From positions 32,001 to 96,000 of IMG/VR virus record IMGVR_UViG_3300009528_000013: a stretch of DNA of 64,000 nucleotides, one strand, 5' to 3'. Below are positions 16,770 to 53,447 of this stretch, one piece after another. Positions within the stretch are counted from its first letter, which is position 1, and each line of letters opens with the position of its first letter. Under the pieces are notes generated by a model. That model saw nothing but the letters and a program-made list of their open reading frames with translations, was not told the origin of the DNA and searched no databases. A program made the translations under genes and the position numbers. Origin of the DNA: a virus.

Positions 16770-16954
16770 GTGAGAGCTTGAGGGCATACAGGCAGTTTAG
16801 GTCTGTGAAAGGAATATGCACAAAGTACCTCCCGGAGGTAGGTGTCTCTTGGAGTAGTGGCTGTTTGGCACAGCCCTCGGTAGTTGCATGGAACTAGGTT
16901 CTTTGCGATGACCGCCCGATAATCCCCCCGGCTTCAGTCGTGGGGGAGTGTCAA
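16680..16954 (+). mobile_element. miniature non-autonomous IS200/IS605-family element (275 bp)
   Basis: TTAT target, then AAAG at +16..+19 and hairpin CCCC CGAT TTCA ATCG T GGGG; right hairpin CCCCC CGGC TTCA GTCG T GGGGG ending in TCAA; no tnpA or tnpB ORF. Confidence 0.8.
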
Positions 16955-19764: not shown

Positions 19765-20887
19765 AATCGAGAAGATCAAGGACATTTCGGACTACGATCC
19801 AGATGGAACAAAAGACTGGGCGGCATTGAAGCCAGACGGAACAAAAGACTGGGCGGCATTGAAGGATGATGCCCGGATTTGTGCGGGATGGTACGCCACA
19901 TTCTTGGACCCGGACAAAGAGATCAAGTTCAGTGAGGTGGAGATTGTCGCTGTCGCCGTCAAGGTTTACAAGGAGATTGCGCGGTGTAAGAAGCTCGATC
20001 CAGAAGAATATAAGTATACCGTGAATCCCGATGAGATGAAATCGGCGGCGAAGAAGCTCTGGGAGAGGGTAGCGAAGGAACTGAGTAAGACTGAGATCGA
20101 GATTCTACTCAAGGAGGCCGAAGAGAATGCCAAAGTCGATAAGGAACAAGGAAAAGGTCAGAAAGAGACAACGGAAGAAGAAGAGAAGGACGATGAGTAC
20201 GCTGAAGTGAAGCCATCGGGCGATAAGAAGGGACGAGAGGTCACCGTTGAGGAAGTCCTGGAAAAGTTCGAATCGTTCCTATTGAGGAAGCCGTTTCTCT
20301 ATTTGGTCGGTGGTCTGGCTAACAATGGCAAAACAACCGGAGACATCGATATTTTGGTCAAAGCGGAAGAGGATTTACCGGACTCGTTCAGGATCCCATT
20401 GGAGTTTAGAATCTATCGGATGTTTGCACCGGAGGATCGACCTCGCGTCCATATTTTATATGATCTCTATCAGGGTCCGTTCACTACGCACTACGAGTTA
20501 GCGGATTTGAAAGTCGATAATCACGAGGAATTTGTTCGGGTCGAAATGAGTAGAGATTTGGAAGAGGAGAAGGAGGACAAAGACGGAGTTCTCTCGGAGA
20601 TTGAGAAGAGTCTGGGCGAAGAAGGGTTTCCAGAAGAGTTTGTGGAGAAGGCGCGATTTCATTTGGAAATTCAAAAAGCCGAGTTTGGATTGGCCGGGAA
20701 AGAGGGCGTGGCCGCGAATCGTGAAGCGAAACAATCGATGCGTCAAGACCGGGTTGTGATGAATAGAAGATTCTATCCGCAGAAGACCTCAGTTTCGGCG
20801 ATGATGGCATATCGAGTCCAGGAGACGTATTCGGTTTCACAGACGTTGGATTACTTGCAGAAATTATATGAACGAGGAATTCGATGA
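19736..20887 (+). CDS. Pol-beta superfamily nucleotidyltransferase domain protein
   Basis: LYLVGGLANNGKTTGDIDILV (hG[GS]...DxD); internal PDGTKDWAALK x2. Confidence 0.75.
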   Translation: MRNMQNLNLEIEKIKDISDYDPDGTKDWAALKPDGTKDWAALKDDARICAGWYATFLDPDKEIKFSEVEIVAVAVKVYKEIARCKKLDPEEYKYTVNPDEMKSAAKKLWERVAKELSKTEIEILLKEAEENAKVDKEQGKGQKETTEEEEKDDEYAEVKPSGDKKGREVTVEEVLEKFESFLLRKPFLYLVGGLANNGKTTGDIDILVKAEEDLPDSFRIPLEFRIYRMFAPEDRPRVHILYDLYQGPFTTHYELADLKVDNHEEFVRVEMSRDLEEEKEDKDGVLSEIEKSLGEEGFPEEFVEKARFHLEIQKAEFGLAGKEGVAANREAKQSMRQDRVVMNRRFYPQKTSVSAMMAYRVQETYSVSQTLDYLQKLYERGIR

Positions 20888-41871: not shown

Positions 41872-43782
41872 GTGGCTGCACAGACTCCAGAGTTACGATC
41901 ATTCTATTTTCAGGCTCAGCTTGTTGTAGAGATTGAGGAGTCTGTGCAGTTTTCCGAGGAGGTGTATCGACCTCAGTACTTTGAAGAAATCGAAGAATCT
42001 GTACTGCTTTCCGAGGAAATAAATGTACTGTATGCAGGGATTGAAGAGTCAATTATATTCTCGGAGGAGATCGATCTTACCGCAGATAATAGTCGTGATA
42101 TTGATGAGACCATCCTGTTTTCTGAGGAAGTTTCGCTGACAACTGGTTTTACTCCGCGCCTGCTTACTTTTTATTTTCAAGCGAAGTTTGAGATAGCAAT
42201 TGAGGAATCCGTATGGTTTTCTGAGGAAGTAAATCCACTCCTCGCGGCTGTTTCTGAATCGGTTTTCTTTTCCGAAGAGATCATTGCCAACAAAATTCCC
42301 CGTATTGATGAGACTGTCCTGTTTTCTGAGGAAGTCGAAGCAATATGTACAAAGACACCGAGACTGTTATCGTTTTGGTTCTTTGGAACTGAAGCTCTTC
42401 AGATTGAAACGATCTACTTCCCTGAAGATTTAGAAATCTGGACTGATGGAGTTCTCCTGATTTCCGAATCAATCGTATTCGGAGAAGCGGTTGAACGCGA
42501 GCTGCCGAGGGAAATTTTCGAAGAAGTTCTTTTGAGCGAAAGTCTTGAGGTTCAGGTCGTAGGACTGACCATTGAAGAAGAATTTGTTTTTTCCGAAGAC
42601 ATTTTTCCTCCCGAGATTGTTAAAATTATCGAGGAATCGGTTTCTTTTACTGAAGACGTTGTTCATATTCCATCACTTCTTCGAGAAACCATTGAATTTG
42701 AAGAACTTTTAGTTCGTCAAATTATACCTTCCCCGATCGAAGAACAGGTTCTCTTTTCAGAAGAGCTTGAGCTAAGACAAACAATCTCAGAGACAATTGT
42801 TTTCTCTGAGGGAGTTTACCCGAGTCAAGTCGGACCGATCCCCGAATCGGTATATTTACAAGAATCTATAACATTAGATATTGTCCAGTCAACCTCTGAT
42901 CAATTTTATCTTCATGAGGAAGTAAAGCTTCAGATTCTGAGAATTTGCAATGAGCAAATTTTTTTCTCAGAAAGCGTTGAATCAGCGTATGGTATCCAAG
43001 AGTCAATCTTCTTTTCCGAAGAGATTTATCAAAGTCGACTCAGCCTTGATGAAACATTCAATCTTACTGAACAGGTTCAGCGCGGTATTCCTGTAAATCT
43101 TTCAGAATCAATTTACTTTGAAGAAGAGGTTGTTCGGCAGGTTGAAATCAGCGAAGCGATTGTCTTTACGGAAGAACTCTGGAACAATCTCCGATTGATT
43201 GATGAAGAGATTGTCTTTTCTGAAGTTCTCCTAAGAGAAATTCATATTTGGATCGGTCCTCATAAAACCCAAGTTGATCTTTTCGAGGATCTGGTTTTCT
43301 CCGAAGTAACATCTTTCTCTAAAACCGAAGCGATATCCGAGCAGGTTCTTTTTACCGAAGAAGTTGAATCAATTTTCAAGGAGGGGGTTCCCGGGCCTTC
43401 GCCCTTCGCAAGAAAAGCAGTTGCAGCACCGGAGCCACCAGTTGAAGCCGTATCTTATCCTGTTGAGGAAGTACCACCAGTTAAAGCTGTATCTTATCCT
43501 GTTGCGAAAGTACCACCAGTTGTTAAACGAGCGTACCCGAGTGCGGAACCGGTACCCCTTGCAAAGCGGGTACCACCAGCAGTCGCAGTACCACAGCCAG
43601 TTGTTAAACGAGTGTACCCAAGTGCGAAACCGGCACCTCTTCCAAGACGAGTACCGCCAGCAGTTGCTCCGGAAGTTTTCATGGAGGCCCCGCCGCCACC
43701 GAAGGTACAAGTCGAGAGAATGAAAACGAGAACCGTTCGAATGAGAATCACCGACAATGTGTCACGATATAGGGTGAAATAA
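41872..43782 (+). CDS. acidic I.E.(V/I).FSE repeat protein with Pro/Val/Lys-rich tail
   Basis: Translation shows dozens of 11-13 aa repeats. Confidence 0.75.
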   Translation: MAAQTPELRSFYFQAQLVVEIEESVQFSEEVYRPQYFEEIEESVLLSEEINVLYAGIEESIIFSEEIDLTADNSRDIDETILFSEEVSLTTGFTPRLLTFYFQAKFEIAIEESVWFSEEVNPLLAAVSESVFFSEEIIANKIPRIDETVLFSEEVEAICTKTPRLLSFWFFGTEALQIETIYFPEDLEIWTDGVLLISESIVFGEAVERELPREIFEEVLLSESLEVQVVGLTIEEEFVFSEDIFPPEIVKIIEESVSFTEDVVHIPSLLRETIEFEELLVRQIIPSPIEEQVLFSEELELRQTISETIVFSEGVYPSQVGPIPESVYLQESITLDIVQSTSDQFYLHEEVKLQILRICNEQIFFSESVESAYGIQESIFFSEEIYQSRLSLDETFNLTEQVQRGIPVNLSESIYFEEEVVRQVEISEAIVFTEELWNNLRLIDEEIVFSEVLLREIHIWIGPHKTQVDLFEDLVFSEVTSFSKTEAISEQVLFTEEVESIFKEGVPGPSPFARKAVAAPEPPVEAVSYPVEEVPPVKAVSYPVAKVPPVVKRAYPSAEPVPLAKRVPPAVAVPQPVVKRVYPSAKPAPLPRRVPPAVAPEVFMEAPPPPKVQVERMKTRTVRMRITDNVSRYRVK

Positions 43783-44538
43783 TTGCGACCAGGCGGAACA
43801 GATGCGAGCTATCTCAGTCTTATGCGAAAAGAATCCGGTGTCGAGATTATTTCAGATGTCGAGATTTTGAGGGAAGGCTACTGGCCGATTACGCAGGTCG
43901 ATAGCTCGACTCAATTTCGAGTCGCGGGCGATGCAACCGCGCTATTTGTATCGGGAAATTCAATTCAGTTGTCTACGAAGAAATTTTCCGAGACAGAAGT
44001 CATCTTATCAGTTACCTTTTCGACTTCGGAAACAATTTTCGTTTTGTCGAGCGGATCGGTTTCGGCTTCCGATCTCGGGGCCCGCGTTTCAAGAATTTTT
44101 CTGGTCTCAGATCGTATCTTGAAAGAGTCGATGGGAGATGTTTCGGAGTCTATCGAGGGCTCAACTCTAAATTTGTTCCAGTCTTCGACTTTCAATTGTA
44201 AGTTGGATAATGCGGACAAGTATTTTCTAGACGCAGAATTAAATACCGGGATCCTGTGGAATGGCGCTGAACTTTTGGAATCGACTGCGATAGCCGAAAC
44301 ACAGGTCACTTTCACTAATTGTACTTTGATAGTGAATGTCTTCAAAGGTGGTGTGTTGACCGTTCTGTCGGGAGATGGGAAAAATCGGGAATATCCCATT
44401 CTTTCGAATACCTCCGGAGCGGTTGTGGTCGTTGGAACCCTACTTACCGATGGAGCATCGGTTGGCGATGCTTTTCTCGTAAGTTTGGGAGTCTGGTTCA
44501 ATTTGAAATTCTATGCAGGTTTGAGGGCGGCGGCATGA
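43783..44538 (+). CDS. hypothetical tail protein
   Basis: ORF in the tail operon; STQF.V.GD motif. Confidence 0.6.
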   Translation: MRPGGTDASYLSLMRKESGVEIISDVEILREGYWPITQVDSSTQFRVAGDATALFVSGNSIQLSTKKFSETEVILSVTFSTSETIFVLSSGSVSASDLGARVSRIFLVSDRILKESMGDVSESIEGSTLNLFQSSTFNCKLDNADKYFLDAELNTGILWNGAELLESTAIAETQVTFTNCTLIVNVFKGGVLTVLSGDGKNREYPILSNTSGAVVVVGTLLTDGASVGDAFLVSLGVWFNLKFYAGLRAAA

Positions 44539-47500
44539 GCAAATTCTTGCGATACTCAGGAATCATTCAACCCATTGCGATTCAAGATGCTCTCCGTGAG
44601 AGAACGATCCAGATCGAGAGTTACGACTTCTTGAAGCGGATGGAACAGTTTCCCGCCGCACTGGTCTCTGAGGAGTTCGGTGCTTTTTTCAGAATCCCCG
44701 GTGTCGATCTGAAGGCTTACGTCGAAGGACCGAATAGGCCTGCTACGAGCGTCCGGGAATTCAGCTTCAAATTCCCCTCTACAAAAACGAAGCTCAAATC
44801 CCGCCGAGGATCCAAAGCGGAAGAAGGGGAAGCTGGATCGCGTGGGTTGCCTGAAGTATCAGTGGTGAACATAAGTGCAGATACTACGGATGGAATCAAA
44901 GTCCTGAAATACAGATCGTGGGGTTGGTTTCAGTGGGATCAGGGCCCCTGGGTCCGGAAGGATTTGGGAGATCAATCTACGATTGCAGCCTGGGATGACT
45001 CGACCATCGAATGTTCTTTTGCAGGGTTTACGCAAGACGATAATATCGAAGTTTTTCTGATTATCGGTCAGTCAGTTATCAAGCGTGGTGGAATTGAGAT
45101 CATCTTCGACAGTGGGAATCCTGTCTATCTGGGTGCTCCGTTCACCTTCATCATCCGGGAGGATGTGGGAGGAACGCTCTACGACATCTCGCAGAGTTGT
45201 ATGGTTCAGCAGCAAGAATCCGAAACAGCGCTTGGAGCCTCAACGGATACTCTTTATATCAGTGCTGTTGAGAAGTTTCGGGGGATCACCTTCGAGTTCG
45301 ATGAATTTCTAACCGGAGCAACTCTGACCTTCGAGTACTCTCAGGGATCCTTCGCGGCTTGGGGCGACCTCAGTAGCTATATGACGGACGGAACGAGCGA
45401 TTTTAGTCAGGACGGGACCATAACGATCACTCCACCGTTTAACTGGACCAAGGCCGGACAAAAGGTCGGTGAGGACGGCGGAGATGACATCGTTGTCGAG
45501 AGATTTTGGCTGAAGATCACAGTCTCAGCTTGGGGAAGCGGAACCGCAAAAATCAGATATTTGACGAGACGGTATTTAGCAGTTGGTCAAGACGGAGATG
45601 CGATTGAGATCGGAGTCAATTTCGAGCAAATCGAGGAGACGGATGACGAGAGGGTAACTGAAGACGTAATCATTCGACCGAGTGATTCGGATTCCTCGGT
45701 TTTTGTACCGGCGACTTGGAAAAAAAATCTCCCGGTTGAACTCCTTCTTGGAAGTGGATCCGGGTCAGATCCTTCATCTTCGCTATTGGCCGCCTCGGGC
45801 TTCTCTGCAAGTTGTCGAGAGGTCGAACAACTGAGCTATACGACTTCGAAACCACAATTCTCCATCTGGGGAATTCCTCCTTATCCAGCGTACCCGGGTG
45901 AAGCTCGTTGTCTTTGTGAAGGCGAGGATCTCGGTAGCGCCGGACGTGTGATTTTGATTGGAATCGGGAAAGAGGTCTGGAAAGTTACCGAACACACGGG
46001 ATTTGAATTTGTCTTCAAACTCCGGGATTATTATTCTACGAGCTTGAGTAAGCCATTTGACGTTGAAATTCGGAGAATGGATTACGATGACGCTTACAAT
46101 GCCGTCTTCGGAGTGGCATGGAAGCGATATAACAACACCGAATATCGGCCAGTTACCGATGTCCAGGCTGATGCGAAAAAGGGGAGATGTACCCCGGCGA
46201 TTCTCTTTCGCTACGACTTTGATACCGGTGTTTTGGAACAACAGGTGATTGGAGAGCCCATCGCAGAATGGGAGACCGCGGAGTCTCGTTTCCTCTCCGG
46301 CGAGGTTTTTCATCGTAATGGAACAGGAAATCAGAATGGGTGGCCCTGGTGGGAGATTGGTGGCACTCCTCAGCACGAGACGACGGGAGGAGAAATGATC
46401 GCTGTCCCTGAACCGGGGCACTATTCTTCGATCATGTATCCAATTTTTGTCGGACAAATCAATCGTCACGTCTCCTTGCGCCGAGCGACAAAGTTGATTG
46501 AAACGCACGTTTTATACTGGGGCGATCAGTATGACATCGAGCGTTTTCAGTACGGTGACTTAGTGGCGGGCGAAGATGAATTTGCTCATGGTCGGTTTGC
46601 TCTTACTTCTCCGGGGTTTTATTATCGGGTAGTTTGGACTGGAGCACTTGAAACGTCTACGATTGACGATGTGCACCTCCGTTTCACTTTTGGACAACCG
46701 GGCGTCGTAGTTTGGAGTCCGTATTATCGTAGCTATATCTATCACGATTTTGATTCCAGTCAAACTCTGGGTGAGCAGAATTACATTGCGGAGGCGGACT
46801 ACTCGGCTTCCGCATGGAGTCTTGATCGGTACTTTGATCTGGACACCCAAGATCGACAGATCTGCTGCGGCGCATTGAAAGAGAATTCCGGAACTCCCAC
46901 TGCCCCAGAAATAATCTATGGGTCGATGGTGTGGAATGATACAAATGTCTCCTTCGTACCTCAGAAGTCCGATGCTTATGTGACCCGCCATAATCTGAGA
47001 ACCGGCGCGGGGGCAACCATCTTTCATTCCGCGTCCTCCTCAGTAAGTGGTACGATGTCGGGTCAGGAAGAAACTTGTACTCCGATTGGTCTGGGATATG
47101 ACCCCGATCAGGATGTGATTCATCTGACCTTTTTTGATCGGGACACTCTTCGCTATCACTATGCGGTCTTCGAGGATACTCCGGCCGGCGCAAAGTATTC
47201 GATTCAAACTGGATCCAATTTCAGTTTTGACTGGTATCGTCCAATCAAATGTTTTACCTTCCACGACGGGAAGATGTATGCCGTCTGTACCGATGATCGA
47301 TTTCAGATTGAAGATGCCTTCCTGATCGAAATTACGTGGAGTAGCCCCGACATTACGATCCGAAAAATTGGTGTGCTCCGCTCCGGTGATTACTCAGCCG
47401 AATCTTTGGTCTGGGTTGGAGACATTCTCTATGGGCTCTCGAAGCCCTCTGGGACGATGTGGTCTTACGGAACGAGTTGGGTTCCGAGGGTGCAACTCGC

Positions 47501-48017
47501 TGATTTTGGGGATGATAATTGTCGGCAGGCTGCAACGAAGCTCAGTCAAGCTGCAAATGCGATTCTTAGAGTAGATCCTGATCGAGTTGCGATTGTTGAA
47601 AAGCGGGAGACTGTTCCTGGTAGTTCTTCAACGCTAGAAGATGAGTTGGTCGAGGTGAAGCCCGAAAAAACATGGAAGTTTATTTACGATGGTTGCGCGG
47701 TGAGTTGGTCTTTTCAGGAATTAAAGGGTACCGAGTCTTGGGGTTTGACAGGACGTAATCAGAGAGTTCTGAAGATCTCTAATCCACTTGTTCAGGATCG
47801 GCATTTTGCAGAGAAGTTGGCGGAGATTTACGGGAAATACTTCTTCAAGGAGCGGACTCTGCTTCCGATCACCGCGAAATATCTTCCGCATTTCGAGCGA
47901 GAAGATCTTCTGAAAATTATTTCGAAAGGAGTTGATCCAAGTAAGAGTCGAAGTATCGTCTCCTTTCGATTACGTAACTCAAACGGGCAAACAGAAATGG
48001 GGTTAGTCGAGCAATGA
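44535..48017 (+). CDS. large tail tip/hub protein
   Basis: ATGA overlap with the previous stop; ~1160 aa; C-terminal I.NPLVQ...A..LA...F and P.FE..D.L.I hub-like pattern. Confidence 0.65.
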   Translation: MSKFLRYSGIIQPIAIQDALRERTIQIESYDFLKRMEQFPAALVSEEFGAFFRIPGVDLKAYVEGPNRPATSVREFSFKFPSTKTKLKSRRGSKAEEGEAGSRGLPEVSVVNISADTTDGIKVLKYRSWGWFQWDQGPWVRKDLGDQSTIAAWDDSTIECSFAGFTQDDNIEVFLIIGQSVIKRGGIEIIFDSGNPVYLGAPFTFIIREDVGGTLYDISQSCMVQQQESETALGASTDTLYISAVEKFRGITFEFDEFLTGATLTFEYSQGSFAAWGDLSSYMTDGTSDFSQDGTITITPPFNWTKAGQKVGEDGGDDIVVERFWLKITVSAWGSGTAKIRYLTRRYLAVGQDGDAIEIGVNFEQIEETDDERVTEDVIIRPSDSDSSVFVPATWKKNLPVELLLGSGSGSDPSSSLLAASGFSASCREVEQLSYTTSKPQFSIWGIPPYPAYPGEARCLCEGEDLGSAGRVILIGIGKEVWKVTEHTGFEFVFKLRDYYSTSLSKPFDVEIRRMDYDDAYNAVFGVAWKRYNNTEYRPVTDVQADAKKGRCTPAILFRYDFDTGVLEQQVIGEPIAEWETAESRFLSGEVFHRNGTGNQNGWPWWEIGGTPQHETTGGEMIAVPEPGHYSSIMYPIFVGQINRHVSLRRATKLIETHVLYWGDQYDIERFQYGDLVAGEDEFAHGRFALTSPGFYYRVVWTGALETSTIDDVHLRFTFGQPGVVVWSPYYRSYIYHDFDSSQTLGEQNYIAEADYSASAWSLDRYFDLDTQDRQICCGALKENSGTPTAPEIIYGSMVWNDTNVSFVPQKSDAYVTRHNLRTGAGATIFHSASSSVSGTMSGQEETCTPIGLGYDPDQDVIHLTFFDRDTLRYHYAVFEDTPAGAKYSIQTGSNFSFDWYRPIKCFTFHDGKMYAVCTDDRFQIEDAFLIEITWSSPDITIRKIGVLRSGDYSAESLVWVGDILYGLSKPSGTMWSYGTSWVPRVQLADFGDDNCRQAATKLSQAANAILRVDPDRVAIVEKRETVPGSSSTLEDELVEVKPEKTWKFIYDGCAVSWSFQELKGTESWGLTGRNQRVLKISNPLVQDRHFAEKLAEIYGKYFFKERTLLPITAKYLPHFEREDLLKIISKGVDPSKSRSIVSFRLRNSNGQTEMGLVEQ

Positions 48018-48868
48018 ATCTGGTCGTAGGTGGAACGGGCCCGTGCGTCTTTTATCTTGCGAGCACGGAAGTATTTATTACAAATTGGAATTTCGAAGTC
48101 AACCTGACTGATTGGACGGGAAAGCCCGCTGCGGGCAATATCGCCCGAATCGAAGATGTTTTAACGTTCTGGGGCGAGTACTCGATGAAGGTCGATGCGA
48201 GCAGTGATCTGAATGCCTATGCCCTTACGACAGTCGAGACTTCGGCAGAGCTTTGGGGAAGGTCATTTATCCTGGAGTTTGCAATCCGCACCGATGTCGA
48301 CCGGGATATTAAAATCTTGATCAAGGACGTTGATGATTACCAAACGTTCAATCAAACATTTACTGCCGAGAGCGGGAAGTTCACACATTATTTCTATTAC
48401 TTCGTCTTTCTGCCGTTGGGCAGTCCTGTGATTGGGCCAACTGAAATTGAAGTTCGACTCTACGGAACCGATACTATGCTCGGGCTTTCGTATTTTGATA
48501 ACGTAAATCTCTATGAGGTCACGGAGAAAATAAATCTTCGAGTTCCGGAGGTTTTTGAGTCTGTTTTTGGGAAGGAGTTGGAAGCACGATTTGAACTTTT
48601 ATCGGGTCGAACTCAGGAATATCTCCGAGGATGGCGCTTCCAAGCGAGTATGGCTTACGAGTATTTGACAAAAGTAGAAGAAGAGAAGCGCACGAGGATC
48701 TCGGACAGTGACCTAATGGTCTTCCAGCCGCACGACGACAACGAGTTCATGGTGGTTTCCAGGTGGAACGGAGATTTTGCGAGAACCTATTTCGGTGATA
48801 TTTATGTGGGGCATACGGGAAGTATCAACTTAATCGGAGCGCATCTTCTAAACAAATCTCCAGTTTAG
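48014..48868 (+). CDS. virion protein with carbohydrate-binding-like domain
   Basis: NWNFE...W...; YFDNV.LYE jelly-roll end motif. Confidence 0.55.
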   Translation: MNLVVGGTGPCVFYLASTEVFITNWNFEVNLTDWTGKPAAGNIARIEDVLTFWGEYSMKVDASSDLNAYALTTVETSAELWGRSFILEFAIRTDVDRDIKILIKDVDDYQTFNQTFTAESGKFTHYFYYFVFLPLGSPVIGPTEIEVRLYGTDTMLGLSYFDNVNLYEVTEKINLRVPEVFESVFGKELEARFELLSGRTQEYLRGWRFQASMAYEYLTKVEEEKRTRISDSDLMVFQPHDDNEFMVVSRWNGDFARTYFGDIYVGHTGSINLIGAHLLNKSPV

Positions 48869-48888
48869 AAAAGAAAGGAGCAACCACA

Positions 48889-49347
48889 ATGTCGGAAGGC
48901 GAAGTTGCGAAGAGAGATGACAATCGGGTCCCCGTAGAACTTCTCCTCGACCCGGATGGAAAACCCCGGCAGCGGCGGGGATCAATTTTCGGCGGGGGAC
49001 TTACCCGGGTCGACGCAAACGAGCATTACCGGGCGTACCATATCAGCCTCGATGCGAACGTGCCCTGGGCCAATGCGGTACATATCGACGTTGGAACAGA
49101 TCTTCAGGCGAGGTACGGCGCTGATGGGCGAATCAGAGCGCAGGCAGGTTTCATTATCACGGACCAGGATATCCAGGTTCGTTTCAATGGATTGACCGAA
49201 GACGAGATTCGAATTGACGTGACGACTTGGGGCAAAATCTTTGAGCTTTCAGTAGGTGATCTCGGAGTCTACGATATTTATCTTGCGAATTACCTACCGA
49301 GCGGTGCTGCGCCGGCAGCGGCCGTTTTTATCTTTGTTTCAGGATAG
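48889..49347 (+). CDS. hypothetical phage protein
   Basis: N-terminal AKRDDNRVP motif. Confidence 0.6.
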   Translation: MSEGEVAKRDDNRVPVELLLDPDGKPRQRRGSIFGGGLTRVDANEHYRAYHISLDANVPWANAVHIDVGTDLQARYGADGRIRAQAGFIITDQDIQVRFNGLTEDEIRIDVTTWGKIFELSVGDLGVYDIYLANYLPSGAAPAAAVFIFVSG

Positions 49348-49356
49348 GAGGAACTG

Positions 49357-50325
49357 ATGCCGCGTACAAGGGATGTCCCGGATTCCAGAACTATGTCTGA
49401 AGAGATTCAACTTTTCAATGCTGGTTTCAGAACCGGAAAAGGAAAGCAGTCCGCAGTTCTGGTGAAACGATTTCGGGGTCTTGGCGATGTCTTGCAGGTT
49501 TTACCTGCTTTGAAGGCATTGAAGGGAAAGTACGGACCGAAGACGAAACTGGTCTTCGGGACTTCACCAATCTTCTTTCCGTTGCTTCGACGATTCGATT
49601 TCATCGACCGTTTGGTGAATGAAAAGCAGGCCGAGGTGAAAGGACGATACGACCTGGTAGTCGATCTCCAGAACAAAGTTGATTTTCTTCCAATCTGCTG
49701 CGAAGCACCGAGGCAAGATCTCTTTGCGAGATTACTGGAGCTAAATCCTCAATGTTACTGTCCGCGGTTCGACTTTCCGATTTTGAAGAGCGAAATTGTA
49801 AAGGCAAGAACAATTCTGCAAAGGGCAGGTTGGCGAGGTGAAAAGTTGTTCGGTTTACACCTGATGGCATATTCCGCTATTCGAACCTGGCCCGTGGAAC
49901 GCAATCTTGAATTGGTTGAGCGGTTATCGGACCGAGAGGGATGGAAGATTTTGATTTTGGAGAGTCATGCAGTCCGAGAGCAATTTCGGAAATTCGATCA
50001 CGTAATTGTGCCTGACAAGACCGCCTTGATCGATCTGTTGGGGTTGCTCTCGTTTTGTGAGTATCTCGTTTGTCCAGATTCGGGCATTATGCACCTGGCA
50101 GGCCTTCTCCAAATTCCTTCGGTCGCCTTATTCGGACCGATCCCACCGGAGTTTCGGATCGGGTACTATCCCAAAACTACCGGTCTCAGTTTAAGAGTTG
50201 ACTGCAATCCATGTTGGGACTGGCAGACGCATGCTTGTCATAAGCGGCCTCATTATCGCCAGTGTCTCAAGAAGATCACCGTTGAAATGGTGATTAACAC
50301 ATTGGAGGATATTGGATGTTTCTGA
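49357..50325 (+). CDS. GT9 (heptosyltransferase-like) glycosyltransferase
   Basis: RGLGDVL...P.L..LK, R.WP, DSG.MHLA, VALFGP. Confidence 0.9.
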   Translation: MPRTRDVPDSRTMSEEIQLFNAGFRTGKGKQSAVLVKRFRGLGDVLQVLPALKALKGKYGPKTKLVFGTSPIFFPLLRRFDFIDRLVNEKQAEVKGRYDLVVDLQNKVDFLPICCEAPRQDLFARLLELNPQCYCPRFDFPILKSEIVKARTILQRAGWRGEKLFGLHLMAYSAIRTWPVERNLELVERLSDREGWKILILESHAVREQFRKFDHVIVPDKTALIDLLGLLSFCEYLVCPDSGIMHLAGLLQIPSVALFGPIPPEFRIGYYPKTTGLSLRVDCNPCWDWQTHACHKRPHYRQCLKKITVEMVINTLEDIGCF

Positions 50326-51311
50326 CAGCTCGAGTACTGTTCCTGAACGAAGAGGACTATATCTGGTACGTTCTAAAGTCGATGTACGATGCTGTCGATG
50401 CAATTGTGATCGTCGAAGGATGTATCGGAGAGTACGGAAGGATTGAGGGTTTTTATTCCAAATCCGGACTCTCGATAGATCGTAGCTCCGAGGAGATTGA
50501 ACGATTCATCGCCAACGACGATCCGGATGGAAAGGTTTGGAATTACAAATACGGTTTTGCGAAAAACTACGCGGAATTGGCAAACCATGCAGTGGATCTT
50601 TTTCCACGAGAGACCACTCATTTCCTCAACGTAGATGCGGATGAATGTTACAAGGCGTTGGACATTTTGCGAGTTCGGCAGATGTTCTCGGATCATCCGA
50701 GATTGTGTGGCGTTGCTGTGGATCGGATCCATTTTTATCTGGACTTCTGGACTCGCCGGATTTCAAAGAAAATGGGCAAATTGGAACCGACTGGCGGAAC
50801 GATGTTCAGAAAGTTCTATCCAGGAGAGTACTATCCCGAGAAAAGCGCTGAACACAATCCTTACTTCGAGGGCGAACCTCTGATAAATTGGTGGCTACCT
50901 TGGATTGCTCAAGATGACATCGAAACAGGAATCAAAGATGCACAGGAACAAGGGCTCGATGGAATTACATTGCGAAAGCGGGTAATTCCACAGTATCATT
51001 ACGGGTGGGTTCGGAAACGTGAAAAGATGATCGAGCGGGTTCTTCAGACGTATCGCAGATCTGATGCGTATTCCGGGCTGAATGTTCGGGCTGAATCTTC
51101 GGATCAGGAGCTAACCGAGTTCATCGAAACGTATAATCCGATCTGGACGGGGATCTTGCCCGATGAAGATGTTCTTCAAAAATTTCCTCCATCGAAGGTC
51201 AATCGGATCCGATGCGACCAAATCTTGTGGGAGGCAGTGGGAGAGCATCCGCTTCCAATGAAAGATCATCCCTTCTTCGGCATGCAGAGGAGGGACTTCG
51301 GATGGCTTTGA
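50316..51311 (+). CDS. GT2-like glycosyltransferase, paralog 1
   Basis: NEEDYI...LKS.YD.VD.IVIVEG, VDADE, HYGWV. Confidence 0.8.
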   Translation: MFLTARVLFLNEEDYIWYVLKSMYDAVDAIVIVEGCIGEYGRIEGFYSKSGLSIDRSSEEIERFIANDDPDGKVWNYKYGFAKNYAELANHAVDLFPRETTHFLNVDADECYKALDILRVRQMFSDHPRLCGVAVDRIHFYLDFWTRRISKKMGKLEPTGGTMFRKFYPGEYYPEKSAEHNPYFEGEPLINWWLPWIAQDDIETGIKDAQEQGLDGITLRKRVIPQYHYGWVRKREKMIERVLQTYRRSDAYSGLNVRAESSDQELTEFIETYNPIWTGILPDEDVLQKFPPSKVNRIRCDQILWEAVGEHPLPMKDHPFFGMQRRDFGWL

Positions 51312-52303
51312 AACTTACAGCATTGATGATTGTAATAAATGAAGAGGATTGGGTCTGGTGGTCGCTGAGATCGATCTACGATGTAGTGGATCATATCGTC
51401 ATAGTGGAAGGTGTGGCTAAAGATAAATGGAAGGAATTTGGTTCTTTCGATCGGTTTGGATTGTCACTTGATAATACGGAGGGAGAGATTGAGAGGTTTA
51501 TCGAAGAATACGATTCGGAAGGTAAGATTAAGTATATCCAGGCTGGATTCCAGCCGACGATTGGAACGCTGAGAGAGCTTGCTTTACGGGAGTGCCCGAA
51601 GGATACGGATTATATTTTAGTGGCAGATGCGGATCATCTGTATGATGAGTCGCAACTTCAGCAGGTTAAGAGTCTCTGTGAACAGTATCCAAACATTCGA
51701 GTCGTCTATTCCGATCAATTGATCTTCTTTCTGGATATGCACCATGTTCTCCAGATCAATGAAGAATACAAGCGGCCGTATGGTCATCATTTGGCGTGTC
51801 TCTTCTACCGATACGATGAGCGATTGAGATATAAGGGGGAGATTTCTTTTTTCGATAACCAGTTTGAACCGGAGGGCTGGTTGCATCCGATCCTCGAGGT
51901 TCGCCCCGATCAGTTGGAAGGAACGAAAGATGATGTCGCAGTATATCCGCCGATGTTTCAGTTCTGGCATTTTGGATGGGTTGGGCGTAGAATGGCGATA
52001 GAGGCGCATCTGCTGAAGACGACTTGGTCGAGAGTGCTCAGGTTGCAATGGCTTCTGAAACACGATCCAGAGAAAGTCACGGATACGGACCGAAACTATT
52101 GGATGCCATTTATAGATATGAGTGCCGAGGAGATCTTGGATTATCACCGATTGTATCACAAGATCTGGACAGGTATTTTCGATGACAAAGTTGGAGAGCG
52201 AGTTGTTCCGTATTTAGGTAAGTATCCGATGGATCAGATGCTTCGCAGTCATCCATTTTTTGGAAAGAGTAAGCATTGGTTTGGACTGGAAGAAGGACTA
52301 TAA
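51302..52303 (+). CDS. GT2-like glycosyltransferase, paralog 2
   Basis: NEEDWV..SLRSIYDVVD.IVIVEG, ADAD, HFGWV. Confidence 0.8.
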   Translation: MALKLTALMIVINEEDWVWWSLRSIYDVVDHIVIVEGVAKDKWKEFGSFDRFGLSLDNTEGEIERFIEEYDSEGKIKYIQAGFQPTIGTLRELALRECPKDTDYILVADADHLYDESQLQQVKSLCEQYPNIRVVYSDQLIFFLDMHHVLQINEEYKRPYGHHLACLFYRYDERLRYKGEISFFDNQFEPEGWLHPILEVRPDQLEGTKDDVAVYPPMFQFWHFGWVGRRMAIEAHLLKTTWSRVLRLQWLLKHDPEKVTDTDRNYWMPFIDMSAEEILDYHRLYHKIWTGIFDDKVGERVVPYLGKYPMDQMLRSHPFFGKSKHWFGLEEGL

Positions 52304-52309
52304 AGGAAA

Positions 52310-52419
52310 GTTTAAGAGCGCTATCCATCAAAATAAGGATTGAAATAAGAGTTCGTATCCCGCTGTCGATTACATCGCAGTAGTTTAAGAACGCTATCCA
52401 TTAAAACAAGGATTGAAAC
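52310..52419 (+). CRISPR. mini-CRISPR array (37-bp repeat, 36-bp spacer, 37-bp repeat), no cas genes
   Basis: GTTTAAGAGCGCTATCCATCAAAATAAGGATTGAAAT / AAGAGTTCGTATCCCGCTGTCGATTACATCGCAGTA / GTTTAAGAACGCTATCCATTAAAACAAGGATTGAAAC; ends in the ATTGAAAC handle of Cas6-processed repeats. Confidence 0.9.
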
Positions 52420-52451
52420 ATCGTTCACTGGCAGCATCAGGAGATGATATA

Positions 52452-53447
52452 GTGAAAATTGGTTGTCACATGCTTACTCTCAATGACCAGCCTTATGTTT
52501 ACTGGGCCTTAAAATCATCATATCCGGCAGTCGATTACATCGCCGTTGTTGAGGGTGCGATCACGCACGATGTTTTCCATAATAAGTACGACCACGTTCC
52601 TGCAACAAGTGAGGGGCTATCGTTGGATAATACTGGCGAGGAAGTCCAAAGGTTCATTGCCAATGACGATCCCGAAGGGAAGGTGCATTATGAACAAGTT
52701 GGCTTTGTGCACAGTTGGGAGGATCTTCGGAACAAAGCGCACTCGATGTTGCCCGAGGATACCGACATCGAACTCATTCAGGATGGGGATTGTCTCTTTA
52801 AGCCAAGAAATATTCTGAAGGCAAAAAAAGTCTTAAAGACATATCCCCAAGTTTATGAAGTGGCGGAATACTGTTGGTCATTTATCTGGGACTTCCGGCA
52901 CGTCCTACATACTGGAATAGAACGAAAGGATTATTGGCGTTGGTGTTTTTTCAGGTATAACCCGACGATGTATTTTGAAAGAGAACGAACAATTTGGTTC
53001 GGTGACGGGAGTACCAGTGAACGAACCAAGATTGACTGGATTGATTTTTTGCGTCTTCGTGAATATGAGTACGGAGATCAGAAATACATTGTTTACAGTC
53101 CCGACTTGCTGGACGTATTCCACTTTGGAAATGTCCAGTTGAAGGAGCGAATGGAAGTTCAGCTCATGCGGAAGTTTTTCGCTCCACAGACGATGGAGAA
53201 GAACCGTCTCGTACTTCCTGATCGGCGACGGGAGACGCTGATGGACTGGCTGAGGATGTACCACAAATTCTATACCAAGGTCTTAGATACCGATGTTGAA
53301 CATGTGGATGAGTTCAAGGGATCGTATCCTCTCGATGGGCTGATTCAGAAACATCCTTATTTCGATAAACCGGAAGAGTGGTTCAGACACGAGGACCCCG
53401 AGGGTGATCAGAGGTCTCCTTTCTACGATTTGAAATGGTGGGACTGA
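52452..53447 (+). CDS. GT2-like glycosyltransferase, paralog 3 (carries the recoded protospacer)
   Basis: GTG after AGGAG aligns with the paralog N-termini; QDGD, HFGNV. Confidence 0.8.
   Translation: MKIGCHMLTLNDQPYVYWALKSSYPAVDYIAVVEGAITHDVFHNKYDHVPATSEGLSLDNTGEEVQRFIANDDPEGKVHYEQVGFVHSWEDLRNKAHSMLPEDTDIELIQDGDCLFKPRNILKAKKVLKTYPQVYEVAEYCWSFIWDFRHVLHTGIERKDYWRWCFFRYNPTMYFERERTIWFGDGSTSERTKIDWIDFLRLREYEYGDQKYIVYSPDLLDVFHFGNVQLKERMEVQLMRKFFAPQTMEKNRLVLPDRRRETLMDWLRMYHKFYTKVLDTDVEHVDEFKGSYPLDGLIQKHPYFDKPEEWFRHEDPEGDQRSPFYDLKWWD

Follow-up and report, generated by a model that had tools for sequence, protein, structure and literature searches.

We describe a minimal CRISPR array in the genome of a tailed phage, located in a 64,000-nucleotide (nt) stretch of DNA (the window) that covers bases 32001-96000 of the 117,770-bp IMG/VR virus record IMGVR_UViG_3300009528_000013, itself estimated to be 87% complete. 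The array holds a single spacer, and this spacer is an all-synonymous variant of a short segment of the very next gene, which encodes a putative glycosyltransferase of the GT-A fold. We consider it probable, at roughly 60%, that this viral mini-array, which has no cas (CRISPR-associated) genes of its own, borrows the type I-B Cas proteins of the host against related phages carrying a sensitive allele of the gene, while its carrier is protected by synonymous mismatches in the seed of its own site. One relative, the metagenomic contig SDBU01002100.1 (L144), has the same array in front of the orthologous gene.

The spacer is an in-frame, synonymous variant of the adjacent gene

The mini-array (52310-52419) consists of two 37-nt repeats, R1 and R2, which differ from each other at 4 positions and surround one 36-nt spacer, giving a repeat period of 73 nt. 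Both the spacer and positions 52512-52547 translate to KSSYPAVDYIAV, the latter in the frame of the open reading frame (ORF) that starts at the GTG at 52452. The mismatches between the two fall at spacer positions 3, 4, 5, 6, 9, 15, 18, 33 and 36 and are synonymous in 9/9 cases, among them a serine switch from AGT in the spacer to TCA in the gene, and positions 19-32 match throughout. Only 92 nt separate the guide from the presumably resistant allele. The preliminary description, made from the letters of the window, had reported two 37-bp repeats around a 36-bp spacer, a 27/36 match with nine synonymous mismatches and a TTA flank, and each of these was borne out exactly on re-reading. The features of the locus are as follows.

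51212..52303, + strand: upstream GT-A paralogue; its stop codon lies 6 nt before the array
52295..52309, + strand: stretch before R1, GGACTATAAAGGAAA, 15 nt; 15/16 identical to L144 despite the differing upstream gene context
52310..52346, + strand: repeat 1 (R1), 37 nt; variant copy with loop CAAAAT and 3' end GAAAT in place of GAAAC
52347..52382, + strand: spacer, 36 nt; encodes the shared peptide in the frame of the downstream gene
52383..52419, + strand: repeat 2 (R2), 37 nt; 3' half agrees with the family consensus ATCCATTAAAACAAGGATTGAAAC; copy in the relative identical at 36/37
52420..52451, + strand: 5' untranslated region (UTR) of the target gene, 32 nt; 29/32 identical in the relative; promoter-like site and GGAGA ribosome-binding site
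52452..53447, + strand: putative GT-A glycosyltransferase (target gene), 331 amino acids (aa); GTG start, GGAGA ribosome-binding site 7 nt upstream
52509..52511, + strand: 5' flank TTA, resembling a protospacer-adjacent motif (PAM); Leu20 codon; TTA also in the relative
52512..52547, + strand: the phage's own copy of the protospacer, 27/36 to the spacer; codons 21-32 of the target gene

A fortuitous resemblance was rejected on the match probabilities, since 27 or more matches out of 36 are expected with a chance of ~1e-9 per position and ~3e-4 genome-wide, and on a simulation in which 0/300,000 random variants of the spacer with nine substitutions kept the peptide. Within the 117,770-bp genome, the second-best match to the spacer reaches 22/36. 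Derivation from one of the paralogues of the target gene was likewise rejected: the best paralogue matches the peptide at 7/12 residues, and no paralogue DNA site attains 22/36. The spacer keeps the reading frame of codons 21-32 and differs from them by synonymous changes alone; it is therefore a piece of a diverged orthologous allele of the adjacent gene, neither a chance match nor paralogue-derived. The AGT/TCA serine switch argues against a simple escape mutation acquired later.

The distribution of the mismatches bears directly on whether the phage would target itself. The seed of type I-B systems, as defined for T. maritima, comprises positions 1-5 and 7 (PMC13199841), and the PAMs TTN/TNA, YYD or TTA have been published for I-B systems with repeats ending in AAC (PMC6926293; PMC13199841 Table 1). 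The phage's own site keeps a PAM of a competent type, TTA, and is mismatched at seed positions 3, 4 and 5. Since these positions lie within the I-B seed, the phage's own copy should be immune, and this immunity should rest on recoding, not on loss of the PAM. The earlier proposal that the linked copy is immune thus gains support from the published seed.

A diverged relative carries the same array

L144 was found with a degenerate-codon pattern for the peptide, and is the sole relative whose DNA was compared, the gene itself over its first 291 nt. It was the one contig in the JGI/NCBI metagenomes to match the pattern, which it did twice, 165 nt apart. The contig is syntenic with window positions 43597-52742 at 76% nucleotide identity and has the same R1-spacer-R2 array, placed 33 nt upstream of the orthologue P0004, whose protein is 78% identical. 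Its spacer is 34/36 identical to that of the window phage, the two differences being at positions 15 and 18, both third codon positions. The relative's own site, again flanked by TTA, has 10/36 mismatches to its spacer, all synonymous and including positions 3-6 and 9. When each spacer is laid against the gene of the other phage, there are 11 and 8 mismatches, and the seed is mismatched both ways.

The array stands out sharply from its surroundings. The block 52295-52451 is identical between the two phages at 151/159 positions (95%), with the identity spread over all of its parts (stretch before R1, 15/16; R1, 37/38; spacer, 34/36; R2, 36/37; stretch after R2, 29/32), as compared with 76% each for the upstream 8.6 kb and the first 291 nt of the gene. 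Among 1,031 sliding windows of 150 nt in the 9.1 kb alignment, the array block ranks first. Four-fold degenerate sites (n=908) have an identity of 0.58, and at this neutral rate the probability is ~1e-6 for a 34/36 spacer and ~1e-26 for the whole block. Given this rank and its improbability at the four-fold rate, either purifying selection acts on the block or a recent exchange moved it as a cassette. Both repeats, together with the 4 differences between R1 and R2, are kept in both phages. RNA structure was considered as the cause of the conservation and rejected, the fold z-scores being insignificant.

Identity falls sharply at the start codon of the target gene, and over the 96 nt that begin with this codon and end with the target site it is ~76-77%; this low value implies that the array and the presumed immune site have not recently been co-converted between the two lineages. 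The genes on the other side differ. Between the second paralogue and the array L144 has three extra genes, where the window has 94 nt; it is the downstream gene, not the upstream paralogue, that the array accompanies there.

L144:454-1701, minus strand: three extra ORFs of 82 aa, 198 aa and 156 aa

Reading the translations by eye, we take the 198-aa product to be similar to SIS/GmhA-type sugar isomerases and the 156-aa product to be phosphatase-like. Elsewhere in the alignment, window positions 45364-45613, inside the ORF 44319-48017, are 93-94% identical to the relative against the 76% average, the sole further island to equal the array block in conservation; this segment may be a recombination patch or strongly constrained.

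The repeat belongs to a family associated with type I-B cas genes

At least 120 GTDB genome loci from many bacterial and archaeal phyla contain the 3' 23 nt of the repeat, mostly within long arrays with a period of 72-75. The full phage repeat is GTTTAAGAACGCTATCCATTAAAACAAGGATTGAAAC; its 3' 24 nt are identical to the repeats of those long arrays, and the 37+36+37 nt geometry of the phage array (period 73) fits their spacing. The 5' part of the repeat is variable, and the best full-length identity to the phage repeat among the at least 120 loci listed is 33/37. A search of host arrays for the repeat had been proposed as a way to name the host and the subtype. It pointed to a subtype, through the type I-B cas neighbours described below, and it produced no identical full repeat among the loci listed.

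In all six host loci examined with their flanks, the arrays adjoin cas genes in the same orientation (6/6). Cas3, with its HD and helicase domains, is encoded beside the array in 5/6 (L061, L064, L057, L117 and L029), I-B Cas7/Csh2 scores above the curated cut-off in 2/6 (L061 and L117), and Cas1 was found in 2/6 (L064 and L024). Arrays of this family thus occur beside type I-B cas genes and run in the same direction as these. From this co-orientation it follows that GTTT...ATTGAAAC is the transcribed strand; the CRISPR RNA (crRNA) of the phage would then be mRNA-sense and would act on DNA. The evidence thus points to DNA targeting, and type III RNA targeting was rejected for the same reason, the sense of the crRNA. 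The preliminary description had arrived at an mRNA-sense crRNA and DNA targeting, and the six co-oriented loci, two of them with I-B Cas7/Csh2, support it.

In four of these loci (L061, L117, L029 and L057) the array directly follows Cas3, with no cas4, cas1 or cas2 between, which suggests that they are I-B variants whose adaptation module is elsewhere or absent.

Among viral sequences, the 24-nt 3' half ATCCATTAAAACAAGGATTGAAAC is present in 19 IMG/VR contigs (L005-L023), mostly as a solitary unit. These contigs are unrelated and very different in base composition, and the appearance of a mini-array is confined to L019, L021 and perhaps L014. The solitary units are candidates for solitary repeat units resembling RNA anti-CRISPRs (Racrs) or for single-repeat guides. 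The phage itself has a second mini-array of the same repeat family and without cas genes, on the minus strand at G000:C1 ~16,770-16,935 of the record (L003:1430-1600), ~15 kb before the window. Of its three repeats, the first is represented by its 3' part only, the middle one is intact (36 nt) and the third is degenerate. Its two spacers (34 nt and ~33 nt in this second array) have no match in the genome, at DNA or peptide level, or in IMG/VR. Adjacency to the target as a general trait of the family's viral copies was rejected, given that neither the second array nor any other viral locus has a self-similar spacer.

The target gene and its genomic setting

The protein encoded downstream of the array has no Pfam match, and a sequence profile search of the PDB with it returned no match. 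Its AlphaFold model has a mean pLDDT (predicted local distance difference test) score of 66, with a good N-terminal half, and Foldseek aligned the model with SunS, SpsA, TarP and RmlT at E values of 1e-7 to 1e-5. On the strength of the model, we regard the product as a putative glycosyltransferase of the GT-A fold, which supports the earlier designation of the adjacent gene as a glycosyltransferase gene. In the modelled fold, the spacer-like site sits at the junction of helix 1 and strand 2. Orthologues of the protein are 57-82% identical and number 12 protein clusters among 5.8 billion representatives.

The target gene is the third of three tandem paralogues (50316-51311, 51212-52303 and 52452-53447) that are 30-36% identical, and the array is placed between the second and the third. 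The three form a family of the GT-A fold that lacks a Pfam model and has the N-terminal motif LKS.Y.AVD.I..VEG in common; the spacer encodes the orthologue-specific form of this motif.

Around the paralogues lies a large glycosylation cluster with GT9, PIG-L, WbqC and methyltransferases, and the genome encodes TerL, a portal and a tape measure protein, as expected of a tailed phage. Neither the glycosyltransferase protein nor TerL had a tblastn match among GenBank phages, and IMG/VR yielded no relatives of the target protein or of a conserved 1,232-aa neighbour. Searches of the 117.8-kb record for Cas6, Cas4, Cas1, the Cas3 core and the I-B Cas7 found none, the only hit being a generic helicase below threshold; the absence of cas genes noted earlier for the window thus extends, for these five families, to the whole record. 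With no match to these families and no leader, the locus is an orphan mini-array. Elsewhere, window positions 19814-19863 (G000:C1:51814-51863) contain two copies, at a distance of 33 nt, of a 17-nt word whose reverse complement is TTCAATGCCGCCCAGTC.

The array lies within a putative operon

The array has no leader, and begins 6 nt past the stop codon of the upstream gene; the last codons and the stop of that gene come, in this phage, from the conserved block in front of the array (52295..52309). No terminator-like site was found between the upstream paralogue and the target gene, and for an array placed 6 nt after the upstream stop codon, transcription would be expected to come from operon read-through. 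The promoter-like site in the 5' UTR of the target gene (52420..52451) is a consensus match only (TTCACT, 18 nt, TG-TATAGT).

R1, which would provide the 8-nt 5' handle AUUGAAAU of the crRNA, is retained as a variant in L144, and an identical loop variant is also found in the viral contigs L010 and L012. At 52383-52451, were a host Cas6 to cut R2 in the operon transcript, the glycosyltransferase mRNA would start with an 8-nt handle followed by the 32-nt UTR. The array could also uncouple the expression of the flanking cistrons in hosts with a type I-B system.

Discussion

The arrangement that we favour is that of a weapon turned on related phages. The array would be transcribed within the phage glycosylation operon, its transcript cut by the host Cas6 and loaded into the host Cascade, and the guide would direct Cas3 to the DNA of related phages carrying a sensitive allele of the GT-A gene. 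Such an allele would read AAG AGT TCG TAT CCN GCN GTC GAT TAC ATC GCA GTA behind a TTN-type PAM (start AAGAGTTC). The carrier would escape, despite its TTA PAM, through three seed mismatches (positions 3-5) and six further synonymous ones, and the outcome would be interference competition or superinfection exclusion between related phages. We propose that guide and resistant allele act as poison and antidote and that selection keeps the two closely linked, since any recombinant that combined the guide with the sensitive allele would destroy itself.

Several observations weigh against this proposal. The preliminary description had expected exact matches to the spacer in the glycosyltransferase genes of relatives, and none was found: IMG/VR, searched with the degenerate codon pattern and with the R1-spacer junction, has no perfect or near-perfect target, and the degenerate pattern returned from the JGI metagenomes only the array-bearing relative and no sensitive allele. 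The missing target is weak evidence, because the lineage is thinly sampled (12 orthologous protein clusters, and the DNA of one relative). The spacers of the host arrays compared do not match the phage, and with the 5' part of the repeat variable, full-length identity to the phage repeat among the loci listed is at best 33/37. The handle derived from R1 ends in a non-consensus base, U for C. It is puzzling, too, that the spacer has stayed near constant while the carriers' own sites have drifted at 6/36 positions, because a rival could escape by a single synonymous change in the seed. Finally, the 95% identity spans flanks that are not repeats, and could thus reflect recent lateral exchange, or selection on a promoter or ribosome-binding site, in place of selection on the guide.

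The preliminary description had gone further and suggested homing, that is, an RNA-guided and host-powered gene drive in which the sensitive allele of a rival is cut and repair from the co-infecting carrier copies the array together with the immune allele. Cas3 would attack the sensitive allele and resect it toward the point of array insertion, and repair would convert the rival. The geometry is suitable: 92 nt separate the guide from its presumably immunised target, the PAM-proximal flank of this site is the one that bears the array, and two diverged phages both retain the pair in spite of the three extra genes upstream in one of them. Type I-E Cas3 resects toward the PAM-proximal side; if type I-B Cas3 does likewise, gap repair would cross the array. 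Our literature search found no paper that ties mini-arrays to homing, and the closeness of mini-arrays to their targets has been reported as unexplained (PMC6858448). Selection for linkage explains the adjacency equally well, however, and the two sequences compared carry no signature of recent co-conversion: the tract of high identity breaks off where the gene starts, and from the start codon to the end of the site (96 nt) identity is at the background level of ~76-77%. Nor do the known sequences include an array-less relative with a sensitive allele, the sole relative being a carrier, and Cas3, being processive, may destroy the rival instead of leaving a repairable break. We therefore hold homing to be unlikely, if worth keeping in mind.

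Quite unlikely, in our estimation, is a decoy function, in which the repeats titrate host Cas6 or Cascade subunits as Racrs do and the spacer is incidental, having come from a host array that sampled the phage family. Racrs are established (PMC10651486), the ATCCATTAAAACAAGGATTGAAAC units are mostly solitary in the 19 unrelated IMG/VR contigs, and the spacers of the phage's second mini-array have no match at all; yet the spacer is conserved to the same degree as the repeats (34/36, where neutral sites have 58%), which is not required of a decoy, and that it should correspond exactly and in frame to the gene that follows would be a ~1-2% coincidence. More doubtful still is the view that the locus has no present function and is an inert remnant of a former recombination event involving a host CRISPR array, or else a neutral cassette that was recently exchanged. 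This would account for the missing leader, for the lack of a target in IMG/VR or the JGI metagenomes and for a best host repeat of 33/37 among the loci listed, and the uniform 95% identity, flanks included, could mean recent lateral transfer over constraint; against it, the array block is the most conserved 150-nt stretch in the 9.1 kb alignment, both phages retain the repeats with their 4 R1/R2 differences, and useless direct repeats 73 nt apart should soon vanish by recombination. The least probable account, and a very improbable one, is self-regulation, with a cr-like RNA guiding Cascade to bind and not cut the phage's own gene and so tune its expression in the manner of CreA. The partial match to the phage's own adjacent gene would suit it, and regulatory mini-arrays are common in I-B loci, some having been copied by phages (bioRxiv 10.1101/2023.03.03.530964). 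Known regulators, however, match in the PAM-proximal seed and mismatch distally, while here seed positions 3-5 are mismatched and the distal part is matched; in the I-B system that was tested, single mismatches at positions 1-5 or 7 led to little or no binding (PMC13199841); and the target lies in a coding region, not a promoter.

As an element directed by one virus against another and sparing its carrier, a mini-array of the type we favour is of a kind already known, so the novelty assumed in the preliminary description does not hold for the general pattern, which has been published (PMC6858448, which cites Faure 2019). In the reported cases, spacers of viral mini-arrays match genes of related viruses that lie nearby or next to the array, and the orthologous locus of the carrier is mutated (PMC6858448). 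The Saccharolobus portogloboviruses SPV1 and SPV2 carry mini-CRISPR arrays (Medvedeva 2019, PMC6858448), and mini-arrays of phages and prophages are described in Faure 2019, as cited in PMC6858448 and PMC7099407. The array reported here resembles both groups in having 1-2 spacers, no cas genes, an intergenic position and repeats of a host-type family, as well as a spacer that would be aimed at a near or adjacent gene of related viruses and a carrier site mutated against self-targeting; it shares the absence of a leader with the phage mini-arrays. It departs from SPV1/SPV2 in that we infer the targeting, with the host repeat matched at 33/37 at best among the loci listed, in that its carrier would be protected solely by synonymous recoding of a conserved peptide, and in that, in place of the spacer turnover of those viruses, the same spacer persists in two phages that are 24% diverged.

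Other parallels are more partial. Like the free-standing homing endonucleases SegB and MobE of T4-like phages (PMC2330249, PMC2790892), the array places a nuclease specificity beside a conserved gene whose linked allele is, judged from its seed mismatches, presumably resistant. On this parallel the allele of the relatives would be cut, and marker exclusion and co-conversion would be expected in mixed infection. Here, in contrast to SegB and MobE, the specificity would reside in a guide RNA served by the Cas proteins of the host, and the comparison with L144, the only one made, shows no conversion tract. Racrs (PMC10651486) are, like this array, phage-encoded CRISPR repeat mimics without cas genes, and the family's solitary units occur in many viral contigs; here, by contrast, two full-length repeats flank a conserved 36-nt spacer of recognisable origin. 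The cr-like mini-arrays of the CreA/CreTA type (Shmakov 2023, bioRxiv 10.1101/2023.03.03.530964) share with it the two repeats, the partial complementarity to a nearby gene and the type I-B context, and differ in that here the seed is mismatched and the distal part matched, the target is coding and the spacer appears to come from an orthologous allele.

Viral mini-arrays that hijack host Cas proteins against competitors are known mostly from a handful of cases, and the present locus is unusually legible among them: its guide differs by synonymous changes alone from the coding sequence of a conserved peptide motif 92 nt downstream, and the guide, almost unchanged, is found together with the presumably immune allele in both phages, which are unlike at 24% of their bases. 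The locus thereby offers a concrete system for two ideas about adjacency, poison-antidote linkage and true homing. If homing were true, it would be the first natural CRISPR-based homing system or gene drive operating among phages, and the reported but unexplained proximity of viral mini-arrays to their targets would find an explanation in it.

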